Numbered from the stretch's first letter, positions 1 to 10,375 are shown. The stretch is 10,375 bases of DNA from a virus (IMGVR_UViG_2690316347_000010); one strand, 5' to 3'. Numbers and translations: made by a program. Notes: generated by a model from the letters alone, not told the origin.

Positions 1-142
1 CACGTTTTAATCCAGGTCGGCCTGTCCTTGTTCCGCTTAATTTATCTTCAAATATTTGTTCATATCCTGCACAAACAAGAGCGTTTCGTTGCAGGTCTGT
101 ATTCTGGTCATTTGTTGATACCCTTACATAGCCAATCAGCAC
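1..142 (-). CDS. pin: Serine DNA invertase (Pin/Gin/Hin/Cin family), N-terminal 47 codons only; partial, runs off the left window edge
   Basis: Reverse complement of 1..142 is identical to 5776..5917 and encodes MLIGYVRVSTNDQNTDLQRNALVCAGYEQIFEDKLSGTRTGRPGL, which matches the N-terminus of e14 Pin and Mu Gin-type invertases as I recall them, including the catalytic-serine region (VRVSTNDQ). GTG start at 140..142 (minus) with a GGGAG Shine-Dalgarno 7 nt upstream. Whether this copy is intact cannot be seen from the window. Confidence 0.65.
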   Translation of the reverse strand, partial: MLIGYVRVSTNDQNTDLQRNALVCAGYEQIFEDKLSGTRTGRPGLKR

Positions 143-196
143 GCTGAATCTCCCGTCCAAAAGCACAAATCATGCCATGCAGGCCAGAAACCGCCA

Positions 197-222
197 TTAT
201 CTAAAACCTCGGTTTACAGGAA
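197..222 (-). other. 26-bp invertase crossover site (gix/pix-like), pixA, inverted orientation
   Basis: Sequence ttatctaaaacctcggtttacaggaa is the exact reverse complement of the site at 5696..5721. It has two imperfect 12-bp half-sites around a central tc/ga dinucleotide and closely matches the Mu gix / e14 pix consensus as I recall it. It lies between the pin 5' end and the start of the fibre cassette, the canonical position. Confidence 0.8.
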
Positions 223-267
223 ACGGTAAACAAGGCTGGTAACGCCGTTCAGCGTTCCGGCGATAAA

Positions 268-1110
268 ATGACCGGAGAACTGAAAATTGGCACGGTGAAT
301 GCGCTGCGAATTTTCAATGATACCTTCGGTCTAATTTTCCGTCGTTCAGAAGATTTTCTTCATTTCATTCCGACGGCTGAAGGACAAGGCGAAAACGGTA
401 ATATCGGCCCATTAAGGCCATTCGCTATAAATCTGAGAACAGGTGCTATATCTGTCAGCCACGGGGCCAAAATTAAAGGAGGTCTAGCTATTGGAGCTAC
501 TGATAACGCACTGGGTGAAAACTCCATTGTTCTGGGAGATAACGACACCGGATTTAGGCAAGATGGAGATGGTATTATTAGCTTCTATTCAAATGGTTCG
601 CGCATCGGACATATTGATGAGTTAGGATTACATCTTTATAAAGATATTGAATCTAATGGCAGCAATTTTAGATTAAAAAGTAATTACCGCCACCACATTA
701 CATTCGCCAACGAAGACGGAAGAATTCGTATGTTTTTGTGGAAAGATAACGGTGGTGATGGTGTTCATATTAATAACGGTTCAGATGGTGGTGGTGATTT
801 CATTTTTAAAACAGATGGGGGATTTGCGCTGGGAAGTGGTGCGCAAGTTGCGTCTAGTGGCGATATTTATGGTTCAGTGTGGGAAAACAACTGGTTAAGC
901 ACATGGCTGCATAATCATGTCGTTCGGGATATTCGTCTTGGCAGCATTGAATATAAAAACGTATGGCGCGACTACGGCTTTGGCGATGCGTCAGGTTATG
1001 TTTTAACAGCCGCAATTAACAGCAATGCGGATGATATTGTCGACACTGTTGCCAGAAGGCCAATTCAGAAATTGATTGGGGGAATATGGTACAACGTGGG
1101 GAGTGTTTAA
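268..1110 (+). CDS. Alternative (silent) tail-fibre C-terminal variable cassette, 280-aa ORF; frame is open from 205, just inside the crossover site
   Basis: Contains the phage tail-fibre repeat [20 protein letters not shown] (compare [20 protein letters not shown] in stf) and a glycine-rich C-terminal domain. No Shine-Dalgarno before ATG 268, and an in-frame TAA at 202..204 sits inside the outer half-site, as expected for a promoterless cassette expressed only after fusion to the stf constant region. Followed immediately by a tfa gene. Confidence 0.8.
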
Positions 1111-1111
1111 G

Positions 1112-1639
1112 ATGATGCACCTGAAAAATATTAAGGCCGGGAATCCGAAAACACCGGAACAATACCAGCTAACTAAAAAAGCGGGCGTGGTATGGCTCTT
1201 TTGCGAAGATGGCAAAAACTGGTATGAGGAACAAAAGAATTTTCAGCCAGACACCATAAAAATTGCTTACGATGAGAACAACATCATCGTTGCTGTCAGT
1301 AAAGACGTTTCAACTATTAATCCTGAAGGGCTAAGCATAGTTGAAGTTCCTGATATTACGGCAAATCGTCACGCAGACAATAACGGAAAATGGATGTTTC
1401 TGGATGGTAAAGTAGTAAAGAGGGAATATACAGAACAGGAACTGCAACAACAGGCCGAATCACAAAAGGCCGCATTGCTTTCCGAAGCTGAATCAGTCAT
1501 CCAGCCGCTGGAACGCGCTGTCAGGCTGAATATGGCGACGGACGAGGAACGCACACGACTGGAAGCATGGGAACGCTACAGTGTTCTGGTCAGCCGTGTG
1601 GATACGGCAAATCCTGAATGGCCACAAAAGCCTGAATAA
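1112..1639 (+). CDS. tfa: Tail fibre assembly chaperone Tfa (ORF track starts at 1076; the start is more likely ATG 1112 or 1115, giving MMHLKNI/MHLKNI)
   Basis: N-terminus [23 protein letters not shown] and overall sequence resemble lambda Tfa / Mu U family chaperones. GGGAG Shine-Dalgarno at 1098..1102. Start lies 1 nt after the cassette stop (TAA 1108..1110). Paralogous (about half identical by eye) to the convergent 177-aa ORF. Confidence 0.88.
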
Positions 1640-1672
1640 AAATTAAGGCCCGATAGCGGGCCTTCTCTCATT
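1631..1672. terminator. Bidirectional intrinsic terminator between the convergent tfa genes
   Basis: Perfect 8-bp stem aaggcccg (1645..1652), loop atag, cgggcctt (1657..1664). On the minus strand the stem is followed by ttaatttttatt; on the plus strand by a weaker ctctcattct run. It sits exactly between the stop codons of the two tfa genes (1637..1639 and 1668..1670). Confidence 0.6.
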
Positions 1673-2201
1673 CTGGTTGTTCGGGAAACGTTACTGGCAG
1701 GCTGGAGGTGTCTGTGGATTCAACCTTCTGCGCATAGAGCATCCACTCGGTTAATTTTTGTTTATTCTCATCGGAAATGATGCCCAGCTGTAGCTGAGAG
1801 TCCCACAGCTGGGTTTTATCCCTGACGAGCTGCAGCAGGCTCTGCTTTTCATTTTCCGCTTGTTGCCTTTGCTCTTCCTCGGTATAAGTTCGCTTTATCA
1901 CCGCACCATCTTTGAACATCCAGTTGCCCGAAATATCAGCCCGGCGATTTGCTGTAATATCAGGCAACTCAACGACACTTAAACCTTCTGGATTAATTGC
2001 TGATACATCCTTGTCTATAGCAATAATTATTCCCTCAACTGTGTAAGCCAGTTTTATTGTATCCTCCTGAAAGTTTTTTAATTCCTCATGCCAATTTTTT
2101 CCATCTTCGGACCATAACCAGATAACATCAAAATTCTTTGTTAGCTGGTATTGTTCAACGGTTTTTGGATTACCTGCGACAATGTTTTTTAAATGCTGCA
2201 T
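1668..2201 (-). CDS. tfa: Tail fibre assembly chaperone Tfa, second allele (177 aa), presumed partner of the stf-resident C-terminal domain
   Basis: [23 protein letters not shown]...; Tfa/Mu U-like, convergent with the 187-aa tfa. ATG at 2199..2201 lies 2 nt after the stop of the 48-aa ORF (translational coupling). Confidence 0.88.
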
Positions 2202-2203
2202 GA

Positions 2204-2350
2204 TTATACCTGCGATACGTTATACCATGTTCCGTTAATTAACTTTTGTATTGGTCTGAATACTGCCGGATCATCACCATCGACTTCACCGATAATACCA
2301 AGCCCCGTGATTACATGGCCTGATTTTTCATACATCACGCCTTTCTTCAT
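2204..2350 (-). CDS. 48-aa ORF in frame with stf, separated from it only by TAG + ACC; likely the detached ancestral C-terminal tail of the fibre
   Basis: [48 protein letters not shown]. Its C-terminus ([17 protein letters not shown]) parallels the C-terminus of the 280-aa cassette ([18 protein letters not shown]). Below the ORF-track size cutoff; found by manual translation. Confidence 0.45.
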
Positions 2351-2353
2351 GGT

Positions 2354-4282
2354 CTAAACAACTCGTGTGCCAAGTCTGACATCTCTCACATAGCGGGAAT
2401 CAAAGTTACCGTAATCCGAGGGATTAACACGTCCCGTAATATTTATGGTTTTATTACTTTGAATGCTTCCGGAGACAAAGCGCATAACATGGACGTTATT
2501 AGCATAAACATCCAGATTACCATCGCCTTTTTGTTTAAAGCCCGTGTCATTATCACCCAATACAATCGAATTACCGCCAAGAGCACTGGATGTTCCGATA
2601 CCCAGTGCACCATTCAGTTGACCACCAGATAACGGCAGTGCACCAACATCTCCTGCTGAAGGTTTTCTGGTGGTGTAAAATTCGGACCAGTCGGCTTCAA
2701 AACCATAACCATCACGGGCTGAACGATAAAAAATACCGCCATTTTTATAATTAATCCGAAACTGAGCTGCAGGACAACTTCCTTCTCCCATATAAAAATG
2801 AATAATTAACGTTGATGCACCACTAATAGTTGCGTTATAGGCTCCGCTACTCCAGTTCCATCCAACTGCTTTATCATTCGCAACGGTGCTTCCTGTTTTC
2901 CCTAAGGCAAACGCACCAACATGACTTGCTTTTAATGTGATATCGGAGGAACCATCAAAAGCCACATTGCTTATTTTCCTGGCAGTTTTTAATTTTGCAG
3001 CTGTAGAAGCATTGCCGGATAGTTCACCAGAAAGGCCACCGCTGAATGTTTGTCGATTAGTCCAGGTATTCGCTGTACTGAGTAACGGTATTTTCTCCCC
3101 GCTTGTGCCGAGTTCTCGTAAACCGAGGTATTCGATAACGGCAGCAACGGTCGATTTCGCAAGAATATCCCGCCCGACTTTTGTCAGGGTTGCCAGGCTG
3201 GCGACATCATTCCCCGTAAAATACGGAAACTTGCCTGCCGCAGTAGTAAGTCCGGCCAGCGCCGTCAGGGTGGCATCTTTCGGTTGCTTACCCGCAAGCG
3301 CGTTAGTCATGGTGGTCGCAAAATTCGGGTCGTTGCCCAGCGCCGCAGCCAGCTCGTTCAGCGTGTTCAGTGCATCAGGTGACGAATCTACAAGGGCGGC
3401 AATCGCAGCCATAACGAAAGCCGTGCTTGCGATTTGGGTATTATTCGTTCCCTGTCGCGCAGTTGGTGTTGTTGGCGTTCCGGTCAGTGCAGGACTATTT
3501 AAGGGCGCTTTCTTGTTCGTTTCACCCATTACCGCCTTAACCGCTTTTGGCGTTGCCGCCAGTGACTCGGAAGTGCTGTTGGTCGCACTGCTGAGCTGTA
3601 CTATCCCCTTTTTCGTCGTGCTCGCATCCTCCAGCGCCACGGCGGATGCAATATCCTCTGCCCGTTTTGCTGCTGTCTCGGCGCGCGTTGCCGCGGATTC
3701 AGCAGCAACTTTGCTCTGAGATGCAGCCGTCGCACTGCCTGCCGCCTCTGATGCTTTCGTTGTTGCTGTCGTGGCACTACCTTTCGCTGCTGACGCTTGT
3801 CTGGTCGCCTCATCTTTTGAAGCAGACGCAGATGATGCCGATGACGCCGCTGAACTGGCTGACGATGCGGCTGCTGCCTTAGAGGAAGCAGCATTGTCTG
3901 CTGAAGTCTTTGCATTTGTTTCAGAGGTTTTTGCTGCAGAAGCAGACCTCGCTGCTGCAGTGGCTTGCTCAGTGGCTTTGCCAGCCTTCGTTGTGGCTGT
4001 TGAAGCGGATGATGCGGCGCTTTCTGCCGATTTTCCGGCGGCGGTGGCACTGGCTGAGGCCTGCCCGGCACTTGTTGACGCGGCACTGGCAGATAATGCA
4101 GCCGCTGTTTTTGAACCTGCCGCAGCTGAGGCGCTCTGTCCCGCTGCTGTTTCAGAAGACTTAGCGTTCGTCTCGGACGTTTTTGCCGCCTTCGCGGAAT
4201 TTCCTGCCGCCGTTGCCGAGGAAGCTGCACTACTGGCACTTGATGATGCATTCGTTTCTGAATATCGGGCCTTAATTTTTAT
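2354..4282 (-). pseudogene. stf: 5'-truncated duplicate of stf (about residues 241–875); no start codon or N-terminal domain
   Basis: 2183..4262 matches 6801..8880 (offset 4618). The open frame runs upstream to an in-frame TGA at 4283..4285, with no ATG/GTG/TTG until GTG 3640, which is why the ORF track reports only 428 aa. The 5' junction lies 17 nt after the stop of the right-hand tfa copy. Confidence 0.65.
3113..3138 (+). other. gix/pix-like crossover site inside the truncated stf copy (pixB), at the constant/variable junction
   Basis: ttctcgtaaaccgaggtattcgataa matches pixC at 22 of 26 positions with the same central GA dinucleotide. Encodes ...VIEYLGLRE... in stf. Inverted relative to pixA. 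Confidence 0.7.
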
Positions 4283-4806
4283 TCAGGCTTTTGTGGCCAT
4301 TCAGGATTTGCCGTATCCACACGGCTGACCAGAACACTGTAGCGTTCCCATGCTTCCAGTCGTGTGCGTTCCTCGTCTGTTGCCATATTCAGCCTGACAG
4401 CGCGTTCCAGCGGCTGGATGACTGATTCAGCTTCGGAAAGCAATGCGGCCTTTTGTGATTCGGCCTGTTGTTGCAGTTCCTGTTCTGTATATTCCCTCTT
4501 TACTACTTTACCATCCAGAAACATCCATTTTCCGTTATTGTCTGCGTGACGATTTGCCGTAATATCAGGAACTTCAACTATGCTTAGCCCTTCAGGATTA
4601 ATAGTTGAAACGTCTTTACTGACAGCAACGATGATGTTGTTCTCATCGTAAGCAATTTTTATGGTGTCTGGCTGAAAATTCTTTTGTTCCTCATACCAGT
4701 TTTTGCCATCTTCGCAAAAGAGCCATACCACGCCCGCTTTTTTAGTTAGCTGGTATTGTTCCGGTGTTTTCGGATTCCCGGCCTTAATATTTTTCAGGTG
4801 CATCAT
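4279..4806 (-). CDS. tfa: Tail fibre assembly chaperone Tfa (identical copy of 1112..1639)
   Basis: Protein identical to the left-hand 187-aa ORF; part of the inverted repeat R1'. Confidence 0.85.
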
Positions 4807-4807
4807 C

Positions 4808-5650
4808 TTAAACACTCCCCACGTTGTACCATATTCCCCCAATCAATTTCTGAATTGGCCTTCTGGCAACAGTGTCGACAATATCATCCGCATTGCTGTT
4901 AATTGCGGCTGTTAAAACATAACCTGACGCATCGCCAAAGCCGTAGTCGCGCCATACGTTTTTATATTCAATGCTGCCAAGACGAATATCCCGAACGACA
5001 TGATTATGCAGCCATGTGCTTAACCAGTTGTTTTCCCACACTGAACCATAAATATCGCCACTAGACGCAACTTGCGCACCACTTCCCAGCGCAAATCCCC
5101 CATCTGTTTTAAAAATGAAATCACCACCACCATCTGAACCGTTATTAATATGAACACCATCACCACCGTTATCTTTCCACAAAAACATACGAATTCTTCC
5201 GTCTTCGTTGGCGAATGTAATGTGGTGGCGGTAATTACTTTTTAATCTAAAATTGCTGCCATTAGATTCAATATCTTTATAAAGATGTAATCCTAACTCA
5301 TCAATATGTCCGATGCGCGAACCATTTGAATAGAAGCTAATAATACCATCTCCATCTTGCCTAAATCCGGTGTCGTTATCTCCCAGAACAATGGAGTTTT
5401 CACCCAGTGCGTTATCAGTAGCTCCAATAGCTAGACCTCCTTTAATTTTGGCCCCGTGGCTGACAGATATAGCACCTGTTCTCAGATTTATAGCGAATGG
5501 CCTTAATGGGCCGATATTACCGTTTTCGCCTTGTCCTTCAGCCGTCGGAATGAAATGAAGAAAATCTTCTGAACGACGGAAAATTAGACCGAAGGTATCA
5601 TTGAAAATTCGCAGCGCATTCACCGTGCCAATTTTCAGTTCTCCGGTCAT
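4808..5650 (-). CDS. Alternative tail-fibre C-terminal variable cassette (identical copy of 268..1110); frame open up to the crossover site
   Basis: Protein identical to the left-hand 280-aa ORF; lies directly downstream (minus strand) of pixC. Confidence 0.8.
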
Positions 5651-5695
5651 TTTATCGCCGGAACGCTGAACGGCGTTACCAGCCTTGTTTACCGT

Positions 5696-5721
5696 TTCCT
5701 GTAAACCGAGGTTTTAGATAA
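5696..5721 (+). other. 26-bp invertase crossover site (gix/pix-like), pixC
   Basis: ttcctgtaaaccgaggttttagataa; sits between the pin remnant and the fibre cassette. Direct orientation relative to pixB and pixD, inverted relative to pixA. Confidence 0.8.
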
Positions 5722-5775
5722 TGGCGGTTTCTGGCCTGCATGGCATGATTTGTGCTTTTGGACGGGAGATTCAGC

Positions 5776-6102
5776 GTGCTGATTGGCTATGTAAGGGTAT
5801 CAACAAATGACCAGAATACAGACCTGCAACGAAACGCTCTTGTTTGTGCAGGATATGAACAAATATTTGAAGATAAATTAAGCGGAACAAGGACAGGCCG
5901 ACCTGGATTAAAACGTGCTTTAAAGCGCCTTCAAAAAGGTGACGCACTGGTTGTCTGAAAACTGGACTGACTGGGTCACTGTATGCGGCATCTTGTCGTG
6001 CTGGTGGTGGAAGCCTAGAAAAAGTATCGGGTGTTGCTGAACCGTGTTGATACATCAACTGCACCTGATATTGAGTGGCCTACGAACCCTGTCAGGGAGT
6101 AA
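5776..6102 (+). pseudogene. pin: Pin/Gin-family serine invertase, decayed: first 60 codons intact, then in-frame TGA, TGA, TAG and TAA; 3' part divergent and cut short by the methyltransferase gene
   Basis: Translation from GTG 5776 gives MLIGYVRVSTNDQ...LQKGDALVV*KLD*LGHCMRHLVVLVVEA*..., against a remembered Pin sequence ...[29 protein letters not shown].... Stops at 5956..5958, 5968..5970, 6016..6018 and 6100..6102. The ORF track's 5752 start is an upstream in-frame GTG; homology points to 5776. Confidence 0.7.
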
Positions 6103-6156
6103 TCATTGGGATTATGCCGCAGCACGTCTTAAGCAAGAACGTGCTGCGGTTGGATG

Positions 6157-6819
6157 CTATTTTTTCCCTGAAGCGGAAAACATTACTACAGTACCTTGAA
6201 CCTTGGTTTTAACATTCTCGAAATGCTCTGAGAGTATATGTGTTAAGCCTTCTTCGGAATCTTTTGTGTTTGAAAAGATGCCTTTCTGATTGTAAATGCG
6301 CATCAGTTTTTGACCGAAGCTATTGTGCACAACTCCATCGCCAAGAATTGTGGCTCCGTATAGAGTTCCATCGTCAGTTAAGGCCTGCGCCGCATTGCGT
6401 ATTACACAGCTTTTTGTAGATATATTTCCAGGCAGGCAGTGAAGAAGGTAAAACATGGAAATGGAATCAAATTGACCATGTAACGCCGCGGGATAAGGTT
6501 CAAAAACATCATGGCTAATTTTATGTTTAATTTTTGATTCCCCAGCCCTTGTAGATGCCGCGTTCAGGCTAGCTTCGTTCAAATCCATTAAAGATATCAG
6601 ACTACTCTCAGGTACGTGAGTAAGGTAAAACCCAGTTCCAACACCAATATCCAGATGGTTGTTACCTAAATGTTCCAGAAAGTGTGGAAGAAGGTGTTCC
6701 TTTGTAGGACATCCCCATGCAAGCCGATTTGATACTCCCAAAACCCACCAGTCATAAAGCTTTAGGGTAAGTGGTGTGTAAATTTTAGCCCCATCATCTG
6801 TGTTTATTAAATGCTGCAT
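6157..6819 (-). CDS. Putative class I SAM-dependent methyltransferase (220 aa) in the position normally held by tfa
   Basis: Glycine-rich motif-I-like segment LDIGVGTGF. Shares start codon, Shine-Dalgarno context and first codons (MQHL-N) with the 177-aa tfa, then diverges. ATG lies 2 nt after the stop of the 48-aa ORF. May be related to the DLP12 prophage YbcY methyltransferase-like gene that sits among tfa remnants in E. coli K-12; this is from memory and unverified. Confidence 0.6.
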   Translation of the reverse strand: MQHLINTDDGAKIYTPLTLKLYDWWVLGVSNRLAWGCPTKEHLLPHFLEHLGNNHLDIGVGTGFYLTHVPESSLISLMDLNEASLNAASTRAGESKIKHKISHDVFEPYPAALHGQFDSISMFYLLHCLPGNISTKSCVIRNAAQALTDDGTLYGATILGDGVVHNSFGQKLMRIYNQKGIFSNTKDSEEGLTHILSEHFENVKTKVQGTVVMFSASGKK

Positions 6820-6821
6820 GA

Positions 6822-6968
6822 TTATACCTGCGATACGTTATACCATGTTCCGTTAATTAACTTTTGTATTGGTCTGAATACTGCCGGATCATCACCATCG
6901 ACTTCACCGATAATACCAAGCCCCGTGATTACATGGCCTGATTTTTCATACATCACGCCTTTCTTCAT
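6822..6968 (-). CDS. 48-aa ORF (copy of 2204..2350), in frame with stf after a single TAG
   Basis: Identical to the copy at 2204..2350; separated from stf only by TAG (6972..6974) + ACC. Confidence 0.45.
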   Translation of the reverse strand: MKKGVMYEKSGHVITGLGIIGEVDGDDPAVFRPIQKLINGTWYNVSQV

Positions 6969-6971
6969 GGT

Positions 6972-9599
6972 CTAAACAACTCGTGTGCCAAGTCTGACAT
7001 CTCTCACATAGCGGGAATCAAAGTTACCGTAATCCGAGGGATTAACACGTCCCGTAATATTTATGGTTTTATTACTTTGAATGCTTCCGGAGACAAAGCG
7101 CATAACATGGACGTTATTAGCATAAACATCCAGATTACCATCGCCTTTTTGTTTAAAGCCCGTGTCATTATCACCCAATACAATCGAATTACCGCCAAGA
7201 GCACTGGATGTTCCGATACCCAGTGCACCATTCAGTTGACCACCAGATAACGGCAGTGCACCAACATCTCCTGCTGAAGGTTTTCTGGTGGTGTAAAATT
7301 CGGACCAGTCGGCTTCAAAACCATAACCATCACGGGCTGAACGATAAAAAATACCGCCATTTTTATAATTAATCCGAAACTGAGCTGCAGGACAACTTCC
7401 TTCTCCCATATAAAAATGAATAATTAACGTTGATGCACCACTAATAGTTGCGTTATAGGCTCCGCTACTCCAGTTCCATCCAACTGCTTTATCATTCGCA
7501 ACGGTGCTTCCTGTTTTCCCTAAGGCAAACGCACCAACATGACTTGCTTTTAATGTGATATCGGAGGAACCATCAAAAGCCACATTGCTTATTTTCCTGG
7601 CAGTTTTTAATTTTGCAGCTGTAGAAGCATTGCCGGATAGTTCACCAGAAAGGCCACCGCTGAATGTTTGTCGATTAGTCCAGGTATTCGCTGTACTGAG
7701 TAACGGTATTTTCTCCCCGCTTGTGCCGAGTTCTCGTAAACCGAGGTATTCGATAACGGCAGCAACGGTCGATTTCGCAAGAATATCCCGCCCGACTTTT
7801 GTCAGGGTTGCCAGGCTGGCGACATCATTCCCCGTAAAATACGGAAACTTGCCTGCCGCAGTAGTAAGTCCGGCCAGCGCCGTCAGGGTGGCATCTTTCG
7901 GTTGCTTACCCGCAAGCGCGTTAGTCATGGTGGTCGCAAAATTCGGGTCGTTGCCCAGCGCCGCAGCCAGCTCGTTCAGCGTGTTCAGTGCATCAGGTGA
8001 CGAATCTACAAGGGCGGCAATCGCAGCCATAACGAAAGCCGTGCTTGCGATTTGGGTATTATTCGTTCCCTGTCGCGCAGTTGGTGTTGTTGGCGTTCCG
8101 GTCAGTGCAGGACTATTTAAGGGCGCTTTCTTGTTCGTTTCACCCATTACCGCCTTAACCGCTTTTGGCGTTGCCGCCAGTGACTCGGAAGTGCTGTTGG
8201 TCGCACTGCTGAGCTGTACTATCCCCTTTTTCGTCGTGCTCGCATCCTCCAGCGCCACGGCGGATGCAATATCCTCTGCCCGTTTTGCTGCTGTCTCGGC
8301 GCGCGTTGCCGCGGATTCAGCAGCAACTTTGCTCTGAGATGCAGCCGTCGCACTGCCTGCCGCCTCTGATGCTTTCGTTGTTGCTGTCGTGGCACTACCT
8401 TTCGCTGCTGACGCTTGTCTGGTCGCCTCATCTTTTGAAGCAGACGCAGATGATGCCGATGACGCCGCTGAACTGGCTGACGATGCGGCTGCTGCCTTAG
8501 AGGAAGCAGCATTGTCTGCTGAAGTCTTTGCATTTGTTTCAGAGGTTTTTGCTGCAGAAGCAGACCTCGCTGCTGCAGTGGCTTGCTCAGTGGCTTTGCC
8601 AGCCTTCGTTGTGGCTGTTGAAGCGGATGATGCGGCGCTTTCTGCCGATTTTCCGGCGGCGGTGGCACTGGCTGAGGCCTGCCCGGCACTTGTTGACGCG
8701 GCACTGGCAGATAATGCAGCCGCTGTTTTTGAACCTGCCGCAGCTGAGGCGCTCTGTCCCGCTGCTGTTTCAGAAGACTTAGCGTTCGTCTCGGACGTTT
8801 TTGCCGCCTTCGCGGAATTTCCTGCCGCCGTTGCCGAGGAAGCTGCACTACTGGCACTTGATGATGCATTCGTTTCTGAAGATTTCGCTGCCTCTTTTGA
8901 GGCCGCCGCACCCCGTGCCGAGGTGGCAGCTTCTGACGCCTTCGTGGTCGCTGTGGATGCAGAAGTGGCTGCCGATTTTTGTGATGCTGCGGCATTCGTT
9001 TCTGACGTTTTCGCGGCACTGGCGCTGGTAGCTGCCGCGCTTTTTGATGACTCTGCAGCAGCACTTTTTGCTGCTTCACGGGCCTTTGTCGATGCCGTTC
9101 CTGCGCTGGAAGACGCTGACTGAGCCGACGACGCGGCCTGTCCGGCTGACGTGCTGGCGGCACGTGCTGAGGCTGCAGCATCGGTTGCATGAGTTGCCGC
9201 CTCGCTGGCTGATTTTTTCGCGGCTGCCGTATTCTGTGCAACCGCGGAGGCGTTACGTGACACCTCTTCCACCATCTGCTCAAAGCGGCGCAGTGCCTCC
9301 GGTCGGACATCATCCTCCGTCATGGCACCGAGAAAATCATTCAGCGTACCTGGTCTGGAACCTTCATAGACGGTAATGGTCCCGGCATGTGAAGGCGGAA
9401 AACCTTCAACCAGCAGGGTGACGCTGTACTGACCATGCTCAACATCCATGCTGTAACGTCCGGCTTCATCCGGATTTTCAGAGGCCACCGTGTTCACCAC
9501 CATCGTGCTGCTGGTTCGTCTGGCCTTCAGCACAATGGTGCAGTTCTGTACTGGTTTTCCTGTGCCATCTTTAAGCACGCCAGAAATTTTTACTGTCAT
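6972..9599 (-). CDS. stf: Side tail fibre protein Stf, full length (875 aa): conserved N-terminal domain, Ala/Ser-rich repetitive shaft, C-terminal receptor-binding domain
   Basis: N-terminus MTVKISGVLKDGTGKPVQNCTIVLKARR...GQYSVTLLVEGFPPSHAGTITVYE closely matches lambda/Rac Stf as I recall it. Long SETNA/Ala-Ser repeat region; C-terminal [14 protein letters not shown] fibre repeat. Lies downstream of lom as in lambda. Confidence 0.92.
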   Translation of the reverse strand: MTVKISGVLKDGTGKPVQNCTIVLKARRTSSTMVVNTVASENPDEAGRYSMDVEHGQYSVTLLVEGFPPSHAGTITVYEGSRPGTLNDFLGAMTEDDVRPEALRRFEQMVEEVSRNASAVAQNTAAAKKSASEAATHATDAAASARAASTSAGQAASSAQSASSSAGTASTKAREAAKSAAAESSKSAAATSASAAKTSETNAAASQKSAATSASTATTKASEAATSARGAAASKEAAKSSETNASSSASSAASSATAAGNSAKAAKTSETNAKSSETAAGQSASAAAGSKTAAALSASAASTSAGQASASATAAGKSAESAASSASTATTKAGKATEQATAAARSASAAKTSETNAKTSADNAASSKAAAASSASSAASSASSASASKDEATRQASAAKGSATTATTKASEAAGSATAASQSKVAAESAATRAETAAKRAEDIASAVALEDASTTKKGIVQLSSATNSTSESLAATPKAVKAVMGETNKKAPLNSPALTGTPTTPTARQGTNNTQIASTAFVMAAIAALVDSSPDALNTLNELAAALGNDPNFATTMTNALAGKQPKDATLTALAGLTTAAGKFPYFTGNDVASLATLTKVGRDILAKSTVAAVIEYLGLRELGTSGEKIPLLSTANTWTNRQTFSGGLSGELSGNASTAAKLKTARKISNVAFDGSSDITLKASHVGAFALGKTGSTVANDKAVGWNWSSGAYNATISGASTLIIHFYMGEGSCPAAQFRINYKNGGIFYRSARDGYGFEADWSEFYTTRKPSAGDVGALPLSGGQLNGALGIGTSSALGGNSIVLGDNDTGFKQKGDGNLDVYANNVHVMRFVSGSIQSNKTINITGRVNPSDYGNFDSRYVRDVRLGTRVV
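7731..7756 (+). other. gix/pix-like crossover site inside full-length stf (pixD)
   Basis: Identical to pixB (offset 4618); 22 of 26 match to pixC with the same central dinucleotide; encodes VIEYLGLRE. Confidence 0.7.
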
Positions 9600-9610
9600 A
9601 CTTTTCCACC

Positions 9611-9646
9611 AATAAAAAAAGCCCGCAGCAGTGACGCCACGGGCTT
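9611..9646 (-). terminator. Putative intrinsic terminator downstream of lom, just upstream of the stf start
   Basis: On the minus strand: 7-bp stem aagcccg/cgggctt with a 14-nt loop, followed by a run of T (A-run 9614..9620 on the plus strand). Confidence 0.5.
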
Positions 9647-9750
9647 CAGGACAGTGTAACTTTACGTTTCCTCAAACGCAGTTCACCCCATAAGGTGGAT
9701 GAACCTGCGTATCATAACAATATTTACAGAAGATAAATCGGCGTCTGTTG

Positions 9751-10350
9751 TCAGATACGGTATCCGATACCAACAATAAATGCATCCGTTCGCCAGTCAC
9801 CACTACCGGAACCTTCATAAGCAAGGTCAATGGTCACGGATTCGGTCGGGTTAAACTGCACGCCAGCCCCCCACGCCAGAGACGTGTTGCTGTGGCGACC
9901 GTCATCACTTCCGGTCAGCACATCGTGCGTTTTCCCCTTGTTGTCAGTTACGCGGAGATAATCCCCGGAGAAAGTCGACACACGGCTGTAAGCCACACCC
10001 ACCATCGCATACGCGCTGAACCATTCATTCACGCGTACAGACGGCCCCGCCATCACGCTGAACCAGCGGTTACGCACGGAATCTTCATGCCAGCGGGTAT
10101 CGCTGTAGTGCGTTTTTTGCTCATCCTCAGCATTGGCATAACTGAAGGACGTAATCAGCCCCAGCGCGTCCGTAAACTCATAACGGTATTTCACGTTAAT
10201 CCCGTTCAGATTATCGCTGCCGGGAGCGTTCGTACGGGCATGAAGATACCCCGCGCTCAGTGTGGACTGATGTTCAGACGCCCATGCAGGCGCACCGGAT
10301 ACGGACAGACAGATGGCTGCGGACAAAATGGCTGCACAAACTTTACGCAT
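9751..10350 (-). CDS. lom: Lom outer-membrane protein (Ail/PagC/OmpX family), with signal peptide
   Basis: MRKVCAAILSAAICLSVSGAPAWA signal peptide followed by SEHQSTLSAGYLHA...; near-identical by recall to phage lambda Lom. GAGAGG Shine-Dalgarno upstream of the ATG. Lies upstream of stf as in lambda. Confidence 0.93.
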   Translation of the reverse strand: MRKVCAAILSAAICLSVSGAPAWASEHQSTLSAGYLHARTNAPGSDNLNGINVKYRYEFTDALGLITSFSYANAEDEQKTHYSDTRWHEDSVRNRWFSVMAGPSVRVNEWFSAYAMVGVAYSRVSTFSGDYLRVTDNKGKTHDVLTGSDDGRHSNTSLAWGAGVQFNPTESVTIDLAYEGSGSGDWRTDAFIVGIGYRI

Positions 10351-10375
10351 AATTACCTCTCGCTTTTCTGCAATA

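Follow-up and report, generated by a model that had tools for sequence, protein, structure and literature searches.

Can a prophage side tail fibre be retargeted by deletion of a segment that lies between two directly repeated crossover sites? This question is raised by a 10,375-nt stretch of viral DNA (IMGVR_UViG_2690316347_000010, hereafter the window), in which the pattern TTCNNGTAAACCGAGGTNTTNGATAA has exactly four matches, at 197-222 (−), 3113-3138 (+), 5696-5721 (+) and 7731-7756 (+), against a chance expectation of 0 sites (200 shuffles). The third match, the 26-bp gix/pix-type site pixC (5696-5721, + strand; TTCCTGTAAACC GA GGTTTTAGATAA), has the variable domain V2 on its left and a pin remnant on its right. 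The fourth, the likewise 26-bp pixD (7731-7756, + strand; TTCTCGTAAACC GA GGTATTCGATAA), lies within a full-length stf ORF, where it encodes ...AVIEYLGLRE.... Both carry the asymmetric GA core on the + strand and are direct repeats, spaced 2,035 bp from start to start.

The initial annotation proposed that deletion between these sites would retarget the fibre, or else that the pair represents a frozen state. As a description of the window, it is accurate: pixC and pixD do share one orientation, and according to ORF calls and Pfam the segment between them holds the Stf V1 domain, a 48-aa ORF (o48), a methyltransferase gene and the pin remnant. The predicted excision product also holds up in silico, where C×D deletion loses 2,035 bp and fuses the constant part of Stf to V2 between ...AVIEYLGL and QETVNKAG..., giving an in-frame Stf-V2 protein of 918 aa followed by tfa187. 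All but one of its residues (917/918) are identical to P0012, a protein annotated in real assemblies of S. sonnei.

The sites are of the kind recognised by serine invertases of the Gin/Pin type: each consists of two 12-bp half-sites of imperfect symmetry that flank an asymmetric 2-bp core, and matches the gix/pix consensus. The remaining two are copies of the first pair: pixA (197-222, − strand) is identical to pixC but inverted, and pixB (3113-3138, + strand), within a partial second copy of stf, is identical to pixD. Against the full 26-bp gix sequence, pixA and pixC show one mismatch. Their core (CTGTAAACCGAGGTTTTAGA) is one base off the native gix core CTGTAAACCGAGGTTTTGGA (checked against PMC5175349). 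Together, pixA and pixB form an inverted pair that bounds a 2,950-bp segment (window 193-3142), which corresponds to positions 11840-14789 of the closed S. sonnei chromosome CP179990.1 (hereafter K); pixA is the genuine left site of this canonical invertible segment. Resolvase-type deletion systems, by comparison, use direct res sites whose accessory subsites assemble a synaptosome specific for deletion, whereas the pix sites are simple 26-bp gix-type sites inside coding sequence.

Finished genomes show what the locus normally looks like. Six closed S. sonnei chromosomes with the cassette are collinear with K, itself included (CP044151.1, CP179990.1, UGZF01000005.1, UGZB01000001.1, CP026802.1 and CP041511.1), and each has just two pix sites, inverted around the 2,950-bp segment, with one V2-pin′ joint and one V1-Stf joint; the identical 875-aa Stf is encoded by three of the six. 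This does not support the reading of pixC and pixD as a genuine direct-repeat pair. The canonical order is J - lom - stf(const) - pixR - V1 - o48 - tfa177, then, convergently, tfa175/187 - V2 - pixL - pin (pseudogene) - methyltransferase, the tfa genes matching PF02413. The methyltransferase gene of this canonical locus lies outside the invertible segment, past pin and convergent with it, and has its own start (MVKSMK...).

Both orientations of the segment exist, with breakpoints exactly at the pix sites. Two N-free contigs (L022 and L023) show K11840-14789 cleanly inverted at its exact limits, with overlaps of 25 nt at the sites, and encode the 918-aa Stf-V2 (P0012) followed by tfa175, while V1, o48 and tfa177 are kept, flipped and adjoining pin′. 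In several drafts (six loci besides these two), recombinant 46-mers occur beside parental ones, and both recombinant joints, V2-Stf and V1-pin′, are present in other assemblies, which speaks against a frozen state. The coding frame is preserved across LGL(R/Q)E in either orientation (Stf-V1, 875 aa; Stf-V2, 918 aa). The real element is probably a conventional tail-fibre switch of the Gin/Cin/Pin type, carried by a defective lambdoid prophage of S. sonnei, in which a serine invertase would flip the 2,950-bp segment and thereby fuse the constant 622-residue N-terminus of Stf in frame to V1 or V2, each isoform being paired with its own assembly chaperone. The fallback offered in the initial annotation, retargeting by inversion with an inverted site, agrees with the clean isoform of the two contigs.

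What remains for deletion? That pixC and pixD form a functional direct pair, whether as an active means of removing the 2-kb segment and retargeting the fibre or as a dead-end route, appears extremely improbable to us, even though the in-silico product is in frame, the protein exists in nature and, in hyperactive invertase mutants that do not need Fis, deletion between direct sites is as rapid as inversion (PMC4817059). The wild-type enzymes, which depend on Fis and the enhancer, are specific for site orientation (PMC3798978, PMC4817059), and the reservation of the initial annotation that Gin/Hin-type enzymes disfavour deletion is sound (PMC4817059). Moreover, the natural 918-aa isoform comes from loci that are cleanly inverted and still have V1, and the deleted configuration was not found among 22 related loci: where Stf-pix-V2-tfa does occur, V1, o48 and tfa177 are kept, flipped, next to pin′. 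The direct orientation itself rests on joins that are probably artefacts, since pixC is parallel to pixD only because a 2.5-kb block has been flipped at two non-pix joins seen nowhere else.

These joins become apparent when the window is tiled onto K, which yields three blocks, each at least 99.9% identical to the chromosome: K9226-12796, then K15869→13327 in flipped orientation, then K10720-14981. Block 1 (6807-10375, − strand; K9226-12796) holds lom (9751-10350), the full-length stf for the 875-aa protein (6972-9599) and o48 (6822-6968); it contributes the copies of o48 and of the Stf C-terminal domain V1 (6972-7730) that lie between pixC and pixD. Block 2 (4263-6805, + strand; K15869→13327), flipped relative to its neighbours, comprises tfa187 (4279-4842, −), V2 (4808-5650, −), pixC, the pin pseudogene (5767 to ~6050, +; a resolvase-type remnant) and a class I SAM-dependent methyltransferase gene (6157-6819, −). 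Block 3 (1-4262, − strand; K10720-14981) has the canonical arrangement and extends from a partial stf (2354-4262), with pixB and V1, through a second copy of o48 (2204-2350), tfa177 (1668-2201), the convergent tfa187 (1076-1639, +), V2 (268-1110, +) and pixA to the 5′ end of pin (1-151, −). As a result, about 2 kb of stf/V1/o48 is present twice, and the window has a direct repeat of 2,080 bp (2183-4262 and 6801-8880; 99.95% identical) as well as an inverted one of 1,655 bp or more (1-1655 and 4263-5917). A scan of the window for promoters and terminators returned nothing beyond chance except the hairpin between the tfa genes.

Both block junctions lie away from any pix site. At J1 (4262/4263), the Ala/Ser-rich part of stf runs, without microhomology, into the loop of the hairpin terminator after tfa187. 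At J2 (6801-6808), the start of tfa177 (ATGCAGCATTTAA) is joined to codon 7 of the methyltransferase gene (AAACACAGATG...) at an 8-nt A-rich microhomology; the reading frame is kept, yielding a hybrid methyltransferase N-terminus (MQHLINT...). Base 6806 (T on the gene strand, A on +) agrees with neither parent and falls at the exact position of an N in a sibling scaffold (L005). Searches for the two junctions were negative in 5,426 complete E. coli genomes as well as in genome_contigs (one genome per species) and metagenome_contigs (JGI metagenomes). Phages yielded no second instance either, and no record exactly matches the hybrid methyltransferase protein. A site-specific origin of the mosaic was rejected, as J1 and J2 are not at pix and all four sites are in parental configuration. 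Also rejected was a real methyltransferase-after-o48 operon from another prophage, this adjacency occurring in none of the genomes searched and the canonical methyltransferase having a different N-terminus.

Sibling assemblies point to a technical origin. Seven drafts (L003/L013, L005, L007, L008, L009/L020, L016 and L021) are mutually different mosaics of K blocks, in which nearly all non-pix joins lie at, or a few bases from, a single N (one join in L007 is without N). Three of the five block ends of the window (K12796, K15869 and K14981) are no more than 2 nt from N-flanked block ends of these siblings, K15869 matching L005 exactly and K14981 being window position 1; in simulations, the chance of such coincidence was ~1e-4. 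We therefore consider it probable, on evidence that is circumstantial rather than drawn from reads, that the window consists of pieces of the canonical invertible Stf locus that were wrongly joined during scaffolding or gap closure of a draft assembly, and that the fibre is retargeted by inversion. Three blocks of the locus would have been concatenated, the middle one (methyltransferase-pin′-pix-V2-tfa187) flipped and ~2 kb of stf/V1/o48 duplicated, the assembly having been misled by the paralogous cassettes of several prophages and by the presence of both orientations in the culture. Since the window would then be a mosaic and not a natural variant, both the 2-kb 'deletable' segment and the parallel orientation of pixC and pixD are most likely artefacts. 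With junction overlaps of at most 8 nt, a de Bruijn misjoin via shared k-mers was not accepted as the only cause; scaffolding or gap closure gives a better fit.

Some features sit less easily with misassembly. The window has zero Ns; the A-rich microhomology and in-frame hybrid ORF at J2, together with the hairpin loop at J1, could fit a replication-based template switch; and recurrent block ends may partly mark repeat boundaries, which are prone to contig breaks and to real recombination alike. A real double template switch of the DUP/INV-DUP type, giving rise to a four-site locus in one S. sonnei isolate, would have copied the methyltransferase-pin′-pix-V2-tfa187 module in inverted orientation and duplicated o48-V1-pix-stf′. 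It would account for the base change and preserved frame at J2, and the full-length Stf would be retargeted by A×D inversion or, rarely, by C×D deletion, both of which yield the natural 918-aa fusion. We nevertheless regard such an event as unlikely: neither junction occurs in any collection searched, the closed genomes are all canonical and the block ends coincide with N-flanked joins of sibling drafts. Furthermore, the long direct and inverted repeats would be unstable to homologous recombination, and losing 4,618 bp gives back the canonical locus exactly. It is correspondingly doubtful that the window is true of one isolate, with a four-site Stf switch in which a methyltransferase, its N-terminus derived from tfa, takes the chaperone position after Stf-V1; if it were, a trans-acting invertase could shuffle the locus among several inversion states and rare deletion states.

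A sub-variant of misassembly, with the same biological conclusion, would attribute the mosaic to long-read consensus or chimeric reads instead of short-read scaffolding or gap closure. While repeats of more than 2 kb without Ns go beyond plain de Bruijn output, the block ends coincide with those of short-read scaffolds joined by Ns, and fold-back chimeras are usually simple palindromes, not three-block mosaics, making this variant very improbable. Misjoining in a short-read draft remains the preferred explanation. It resembles known scaffolding and gap-closure errors at phase-variable or repeated prophage regions in the N-marked joins of the siblings, the duplicated flanks, the inconsistent mosaics and the recurrence of sibling block ends in the window. 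Unlike the siblings, however, the window itself is free of Ns, and its identification as a misassembly is indirect.

If the genuine locus inverts, which enzyme acts on it? No functional serine invertase (Resolvase plus HTH_7 domains) is encoded next to the sites. The first ~190 nt of the pin pseudogene are ~95% identical to the intact gene of a 195-aa invertase, beyond which in-frame TGA stops appear and the similarity is gone; ~63 N-terminal codons are intact and the region of the catalytic Ser is retained, the remaining catalytic domain and the HTH being lost. Invertases of this family depend on a Fis-bound recombinational enhancer in cis, which is normally found within the 5′ portion of the invertase gene, at a distance of ~100 bp from one of the two sites. 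A putative Fis enhancer may lie in the retained 5′ part of pin, and the ~95% identity over this stretch is compatible with its retention. The intact 195-aa paralogue (PF00239 and PF02796), with the same crossover site, is encoded in a P2-like prophage of S. sonnei, from which the enzyme for the Stf switch would be supplied in trans. Such cross-talk has precedent, as PinQ acts in trans on the segment of another prophage, e14 (PMC12529663).

How does this locus compare with known switches? Its closest likeness is the e14 P segment with Pin of E. coli K-12 (stfP/ycfK-tfaP / tfaE-stfE-pinE), which also belongs to a defective prophage in the chromosome of an enterobacterium, has its crossover site inside the side-tail-fibre ORF and carries two convergent cassettes of variable domain plus tfa, such that inversion joins a constant N-terminus to alternative C-termini. 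In e14, both orientations are found side by side in cultures (PMC4272514), and paralogous invertases can work on it in trans (PinQ, PMC12529663). By contrast, the S. sonnei locus has a pseudogene as its cis invertase, a segment of 2,950 bp rather than 1,797 bp, an additional 48-aa ORF in the V1 cassette and a lambda-like J-lom-stf module beside trpA and IS1. The Mu G segment with Gin and the P1 C segment with Cin share near-identical 26-bp gix sites (CTGTAAACCGAGGTTTTAGA versus CTGTAAACCGAGGTTTTGGA), the layout Sc-site-Sv-U / U′-S′v-site-invertase and the host-range switch by inversion, but they concern myovirus fibres, whereas the S. sonnei gene encodes a lambdoid side tail fibre (PF08400 N-terminus) without a functional adjacent invertase. 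The four related sites and duplicated cassettes of the window superficially recall Min of plasmid p15B (six mix sites) and the shufflons; yet closed S. sonnei genomes have two sites only, and the extra sites are by-products of the duplication of blocks at non-pix joins rather than members of an evolved array. More than two sites with distinct cassettes, as in a multiple-inversion system, were not found in finished genomes.

These findings identify phase-variable tail-fibre regions with paralogues in several prophages as hot spots for scaffold mosaics, which can mimic exotic multi-site recombination systems and hence constitute a quality-control point. Even if the arrangement were real, it would represent a one-off rearranged locus and no new recombination mechanism. 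Beneath the mosaic lies a textbook host-range switch of the Gin/Pin type, one of a kind recently linked to phage defence through Stf inversions of cryptic prophages in E. coli (PMC12529663). Of mild interest is that the S. sonnei switch still flips although its own invertase gene is dead.

The window carries four 26-bp matches to the gix/pix-type crossover sequence TTCNNGTAAACCGAGGTNTTNGATAA, where none would be expected by chance: pixA (197–222, minus strand) and pixB (3113–3138), pixC (5696–5721) and pixD (7731–7756), all on the plus strand. pixA equals pixC and pixB equals pixD in sequence, the former pair being one base apart from the gix site of phage Mu, whose native core is CTGTAAACCGAGGTTTTGGA (PMC5175349). 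Since the asymmetric central dinucleotide reads GA on the plus strand in pixB, pixC and pixD and TC in pixA, pixC and pixD are direct repeats in the window as given, as the initial annotation had stated.

By ORFs, translations and Pfam, the segment between these two sites holds everything that had been ascribed to it: the resolvase-type remnant pin′ (from 5767; PF00239 match confined to the first 68 codons), a class I methyltransferase gene (6157–6819, minus; ORF and Pfam), the 48-aa ORF o48 (6822–6968, minus) and V1, the variable C-terminal part of the 875-aa side tail fibre encoded by stf (6972–9599, minus; PF08400 N-terminus). To the left of pixC lie V2, a 280-aa fibre-tip cassette (4808–5650, minus), and the tail-fibre assembly gene tfa187 (4279–4842, minus; PF02413). 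When pixC and pixD are recombined in silico at the core, 2,035 bp are lost and the proposed fusion of Stf to the other cassette results, an in-frame 918-aa Stf-V2 protein (joint ...AVIEYLGL/QETVNKAG...); a computed pixA×pixD inversion gives the same product. o48 (6822–6968 and 2204–2350, minus) resembles the extreme C-terminus of V2 (268–1110, plus), with 46% identity over 41 aa and a common motif, ...RPIQKLI(N/G)G(T/I)WYNV..., so that the V1 fibre tip consists of two ORFs and that of V2 of one continuous ORF.

The window itself is built from repeated pieces. Self-comparison uncovered an inverted repeat (1–1655 versus 4263–5917, two mismatches) and a direct repeat (2183–4262 versus 6801–8880, one mismatch). 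Positions 1–4262 form a canonical module in the style of Mu G and e14 P, i.e. pin′-pixA-V2-tfa187 followed by convergent tfa177-o48-V1-pixB-stf; beyond 4262, pieces of this module recur, one of them flipped. Relative to K, the canonical Shigella sonnei locus on the closed chromosome CP179990.1, the window resolves into three blocks of at least 99.9% identity each: 10375→6807 (K9226–12796), 6805→4263 (K15869→13327, flipped) and 4262→1 (K10720–14981). It is the flip of the middle block alone that makes pixC direct to pixD. Site-specific recombination was rejected as the origin of this arrangement, since the joins lie off the pix sites and all four sites have parental flanks (V2-pin′ and V1-Stf). 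The two tfa187 copies differ by two synonymous changes (1537/1540 versus 4381/4378), the left copy departing from K; further differences from CP179990.1 are one inserted nucleotide (9669) and one substituted base (6203).

At the first join, J1 (4262/4263), stf, in its Ala/Ser-rich part, runs into the loop of the hairpin terminator downstream of tfa187. The hairpin, AAGGCCCG-CTAT-CGGGCCTT, is terminator-like and separates the convergent tfa genes (1645–1664; 4263–4273), and J1 cuts its second copy (4263–4273) in the loop. The centre of Stf (8376–9224; copy 3758–4273) is an Ala/Ser-rich tract of degenerate ~33-nt repeats (...AAKTSETNA...); such low-complexity repeats, which other prophage fibres have as well, are places where contigs are likely to break. 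At J2 (~6806), the first 13 nt of tfa177 (ATGCAGCATTTAA) abut methyltransferase codon 7 (AAACACAGATG...), separated by a single base (6806) that matches neither parent, and the methyltransferase start thus becomes a hybrid MQHLINT... instead of the canonical MVKSMK....

We consider this mosaic most likely an assembly artefact. Seven drafts from a single series of S. sonnei assemblies (GCA_9001xxxxx; loci L003/L013, L005, L007, L008, L009/L020, L016 and L021) present the same locus as differing, mutually inconsistent mosaics of K blocks, both duplicated and flipped in each draft. Nearly all of their non-pix joins fall at N or a few bases off—one join in L007 without N being the exception—and such N-marked joins are a signature of scaffolding or gap closure. 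The same block ends turn up in assemblies where their partners differ (e.g. K15436 in three), and for three of the five window block ends an N-flanked end of a sibling draft is no more than 2 nt away: K15869 coincides exactly with a block start in L005, K12796 lies 2 nt away from K12798 of L003, and K14981, at which the window begins (position 1), lies 2 nt away from K14979 of L005. For a fourth, the nearest sibling end is 22 nt away. In simulation, the probability of at least three of five random ends falling within 3 nt was ~1e-4. The unmatched base 6806 is also the exact position of N in L005. In favour of a real, isolate-specific rearrangement by template switching are the N-free sequence of the window, the location of J1 in a hairpin loop and, at J2, an A-rich microhomology together with an in-frame hybrid; however, homologous recombination would make the 2,080-bp direct repeat (99.95% identity) unstable, and K is recovered exactly when 4,618 bp are lost. 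Moreover, probes for J1 and J2 found no place with at least 80% coverage of either in 5,426 complete E. coli genomes, the joins were not found in phage records, a one-genome-per-species set or JGI metagenomes, and the hybrid methyltransferase has no database record. We therefore regard such a rearrangement as unlikely, and likewise a real four-site locus with a tfa-methyltransferase hybrid. The proposed feature, two direct repeats around a 2-kb segment that could be deleted, is most likely not real.

S. sonnei has sequences identical to both the 875-aa Stf and the 280-aa V2. On all six closed chromosomes carrying the locus (CP044151.1, CP179990.1, UGZF01000005.1, UGZB01000001.1, CP026802.1 and CP041511.1), the order is J-lom-stf-pix-V1-o48-tfa177, then convergent tfa175-V2-pix-pin′-methyltransferase-tfa remnant-IS1 ... 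trpA, with only two pix sites, inverted. The prophage is clearly defective: stf is interrupted by an IS element in some closed genomes, and the remnant past the methyltransferase is bordered by IS1 copies (L017 14431–15587, CP041511.1; L002/L004 16288–19250). The locus in E. coli NCTC86 is organised in the same way, save for another left-hand cassette. Both of its cassettes (L001 3193–3968, ~5249–6020) are V1-like, window 2370–3142 matching both at 97.7%, one inverted, and inverting the segment in NCTC86 would leave the fibre tip almost unaltered.

That the sites recombine is evident from an annotated 918-aa S. sonnei protein, P0012, identical to the predicted Stf-V2 fusion at 917 of 918 positions. 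Its two contigs (L022 and L023) contain no N and equal K with exactly K11840–14789 inverted, a 2,950-bp segment corresponding to window 193–3142 with 25-nt overlaps at the sites at both ends. Their order is Stf-V2 then tfa175, with V1, o48 and tfa177 retained, flipped and adjoining pin′. Recombinant 46-mers (V2-Stf and V1-pin′), which do not match the site flank of the P2-like prophage, occur alongside parental ones in several drafts. Together, these contigs and joints indicate a recombinogenic locus that switches by inversion, not the frozen state that had been suggested; the deleted configuration proposed as a check was seen in none of 22 related loci. The suggestion that retargeting depends on inversion with pixA holds as to inversion, the pixA-pixD pairing itself being an in silico result. 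In L019 (9413–12875, JAACXM010000015.1), a Mu-like baseplate/tail-fibre module leads into V2, apparently via pix, with V1-pix-pin′ downstream, which reflects either recombination of different prophages at their pix sites or a misjoin in the assembly.

The premise that Gin/Hin-family invertases disfavour deletion is borne out by the literature: wild-type Fis/enhancer-dependent invertases are orientation-specific, and equal readiness to delete between direct sites and to invert is confined to Fis-independent mutants, Hin-H107Y among them (PMC3798978, PMC4817059). Were the window real, pixC×pixD deletion would still be disfavoured.

As for the enzyme, the first ~190 nt of pin′ share ~95% identity with the gene for an intact 195-aa serine invertase (Resolvase and HTH_7) that a P2-like prophage of this species carries (L003 19142–19838); further downstream, TGA stops accumulate and similarity is lost. 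Judged from its sequence, the pin gene in cis is dead. The crossover site and V2-side flank beside the P2-like invertase are identical to pixA/C, and this enzyme is a candidate for acting in trans on the lambdoid segment, while the retained 5′ region of pin′ may still provide a putative Fis enhancer in cis. For action in trans there is precedent in the e14 P segment, which is inverted by PinQ of Qin (PMC12529663) and occurs in both orientations together in cultures (PMC4272514).

With two sites per finished genome, a resolvase-type deletion system and a Min- or shufflon-type multi-site system were both rejected. The mode of action of the real element is that of the Gin/Cin/Pin invertible tail-fibre segments, with which it agrees in most of the features compared, except that it lacks a functional adjacent invertase; e14 P/Pin is closest in context and Mu G/Gin in site sequence. 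A real four-site locus with a tfa-methyltransferase hybrid would, if true, be of modest importance, and the underlying biology, an invertible tail-fibre segment, is already known in kind.
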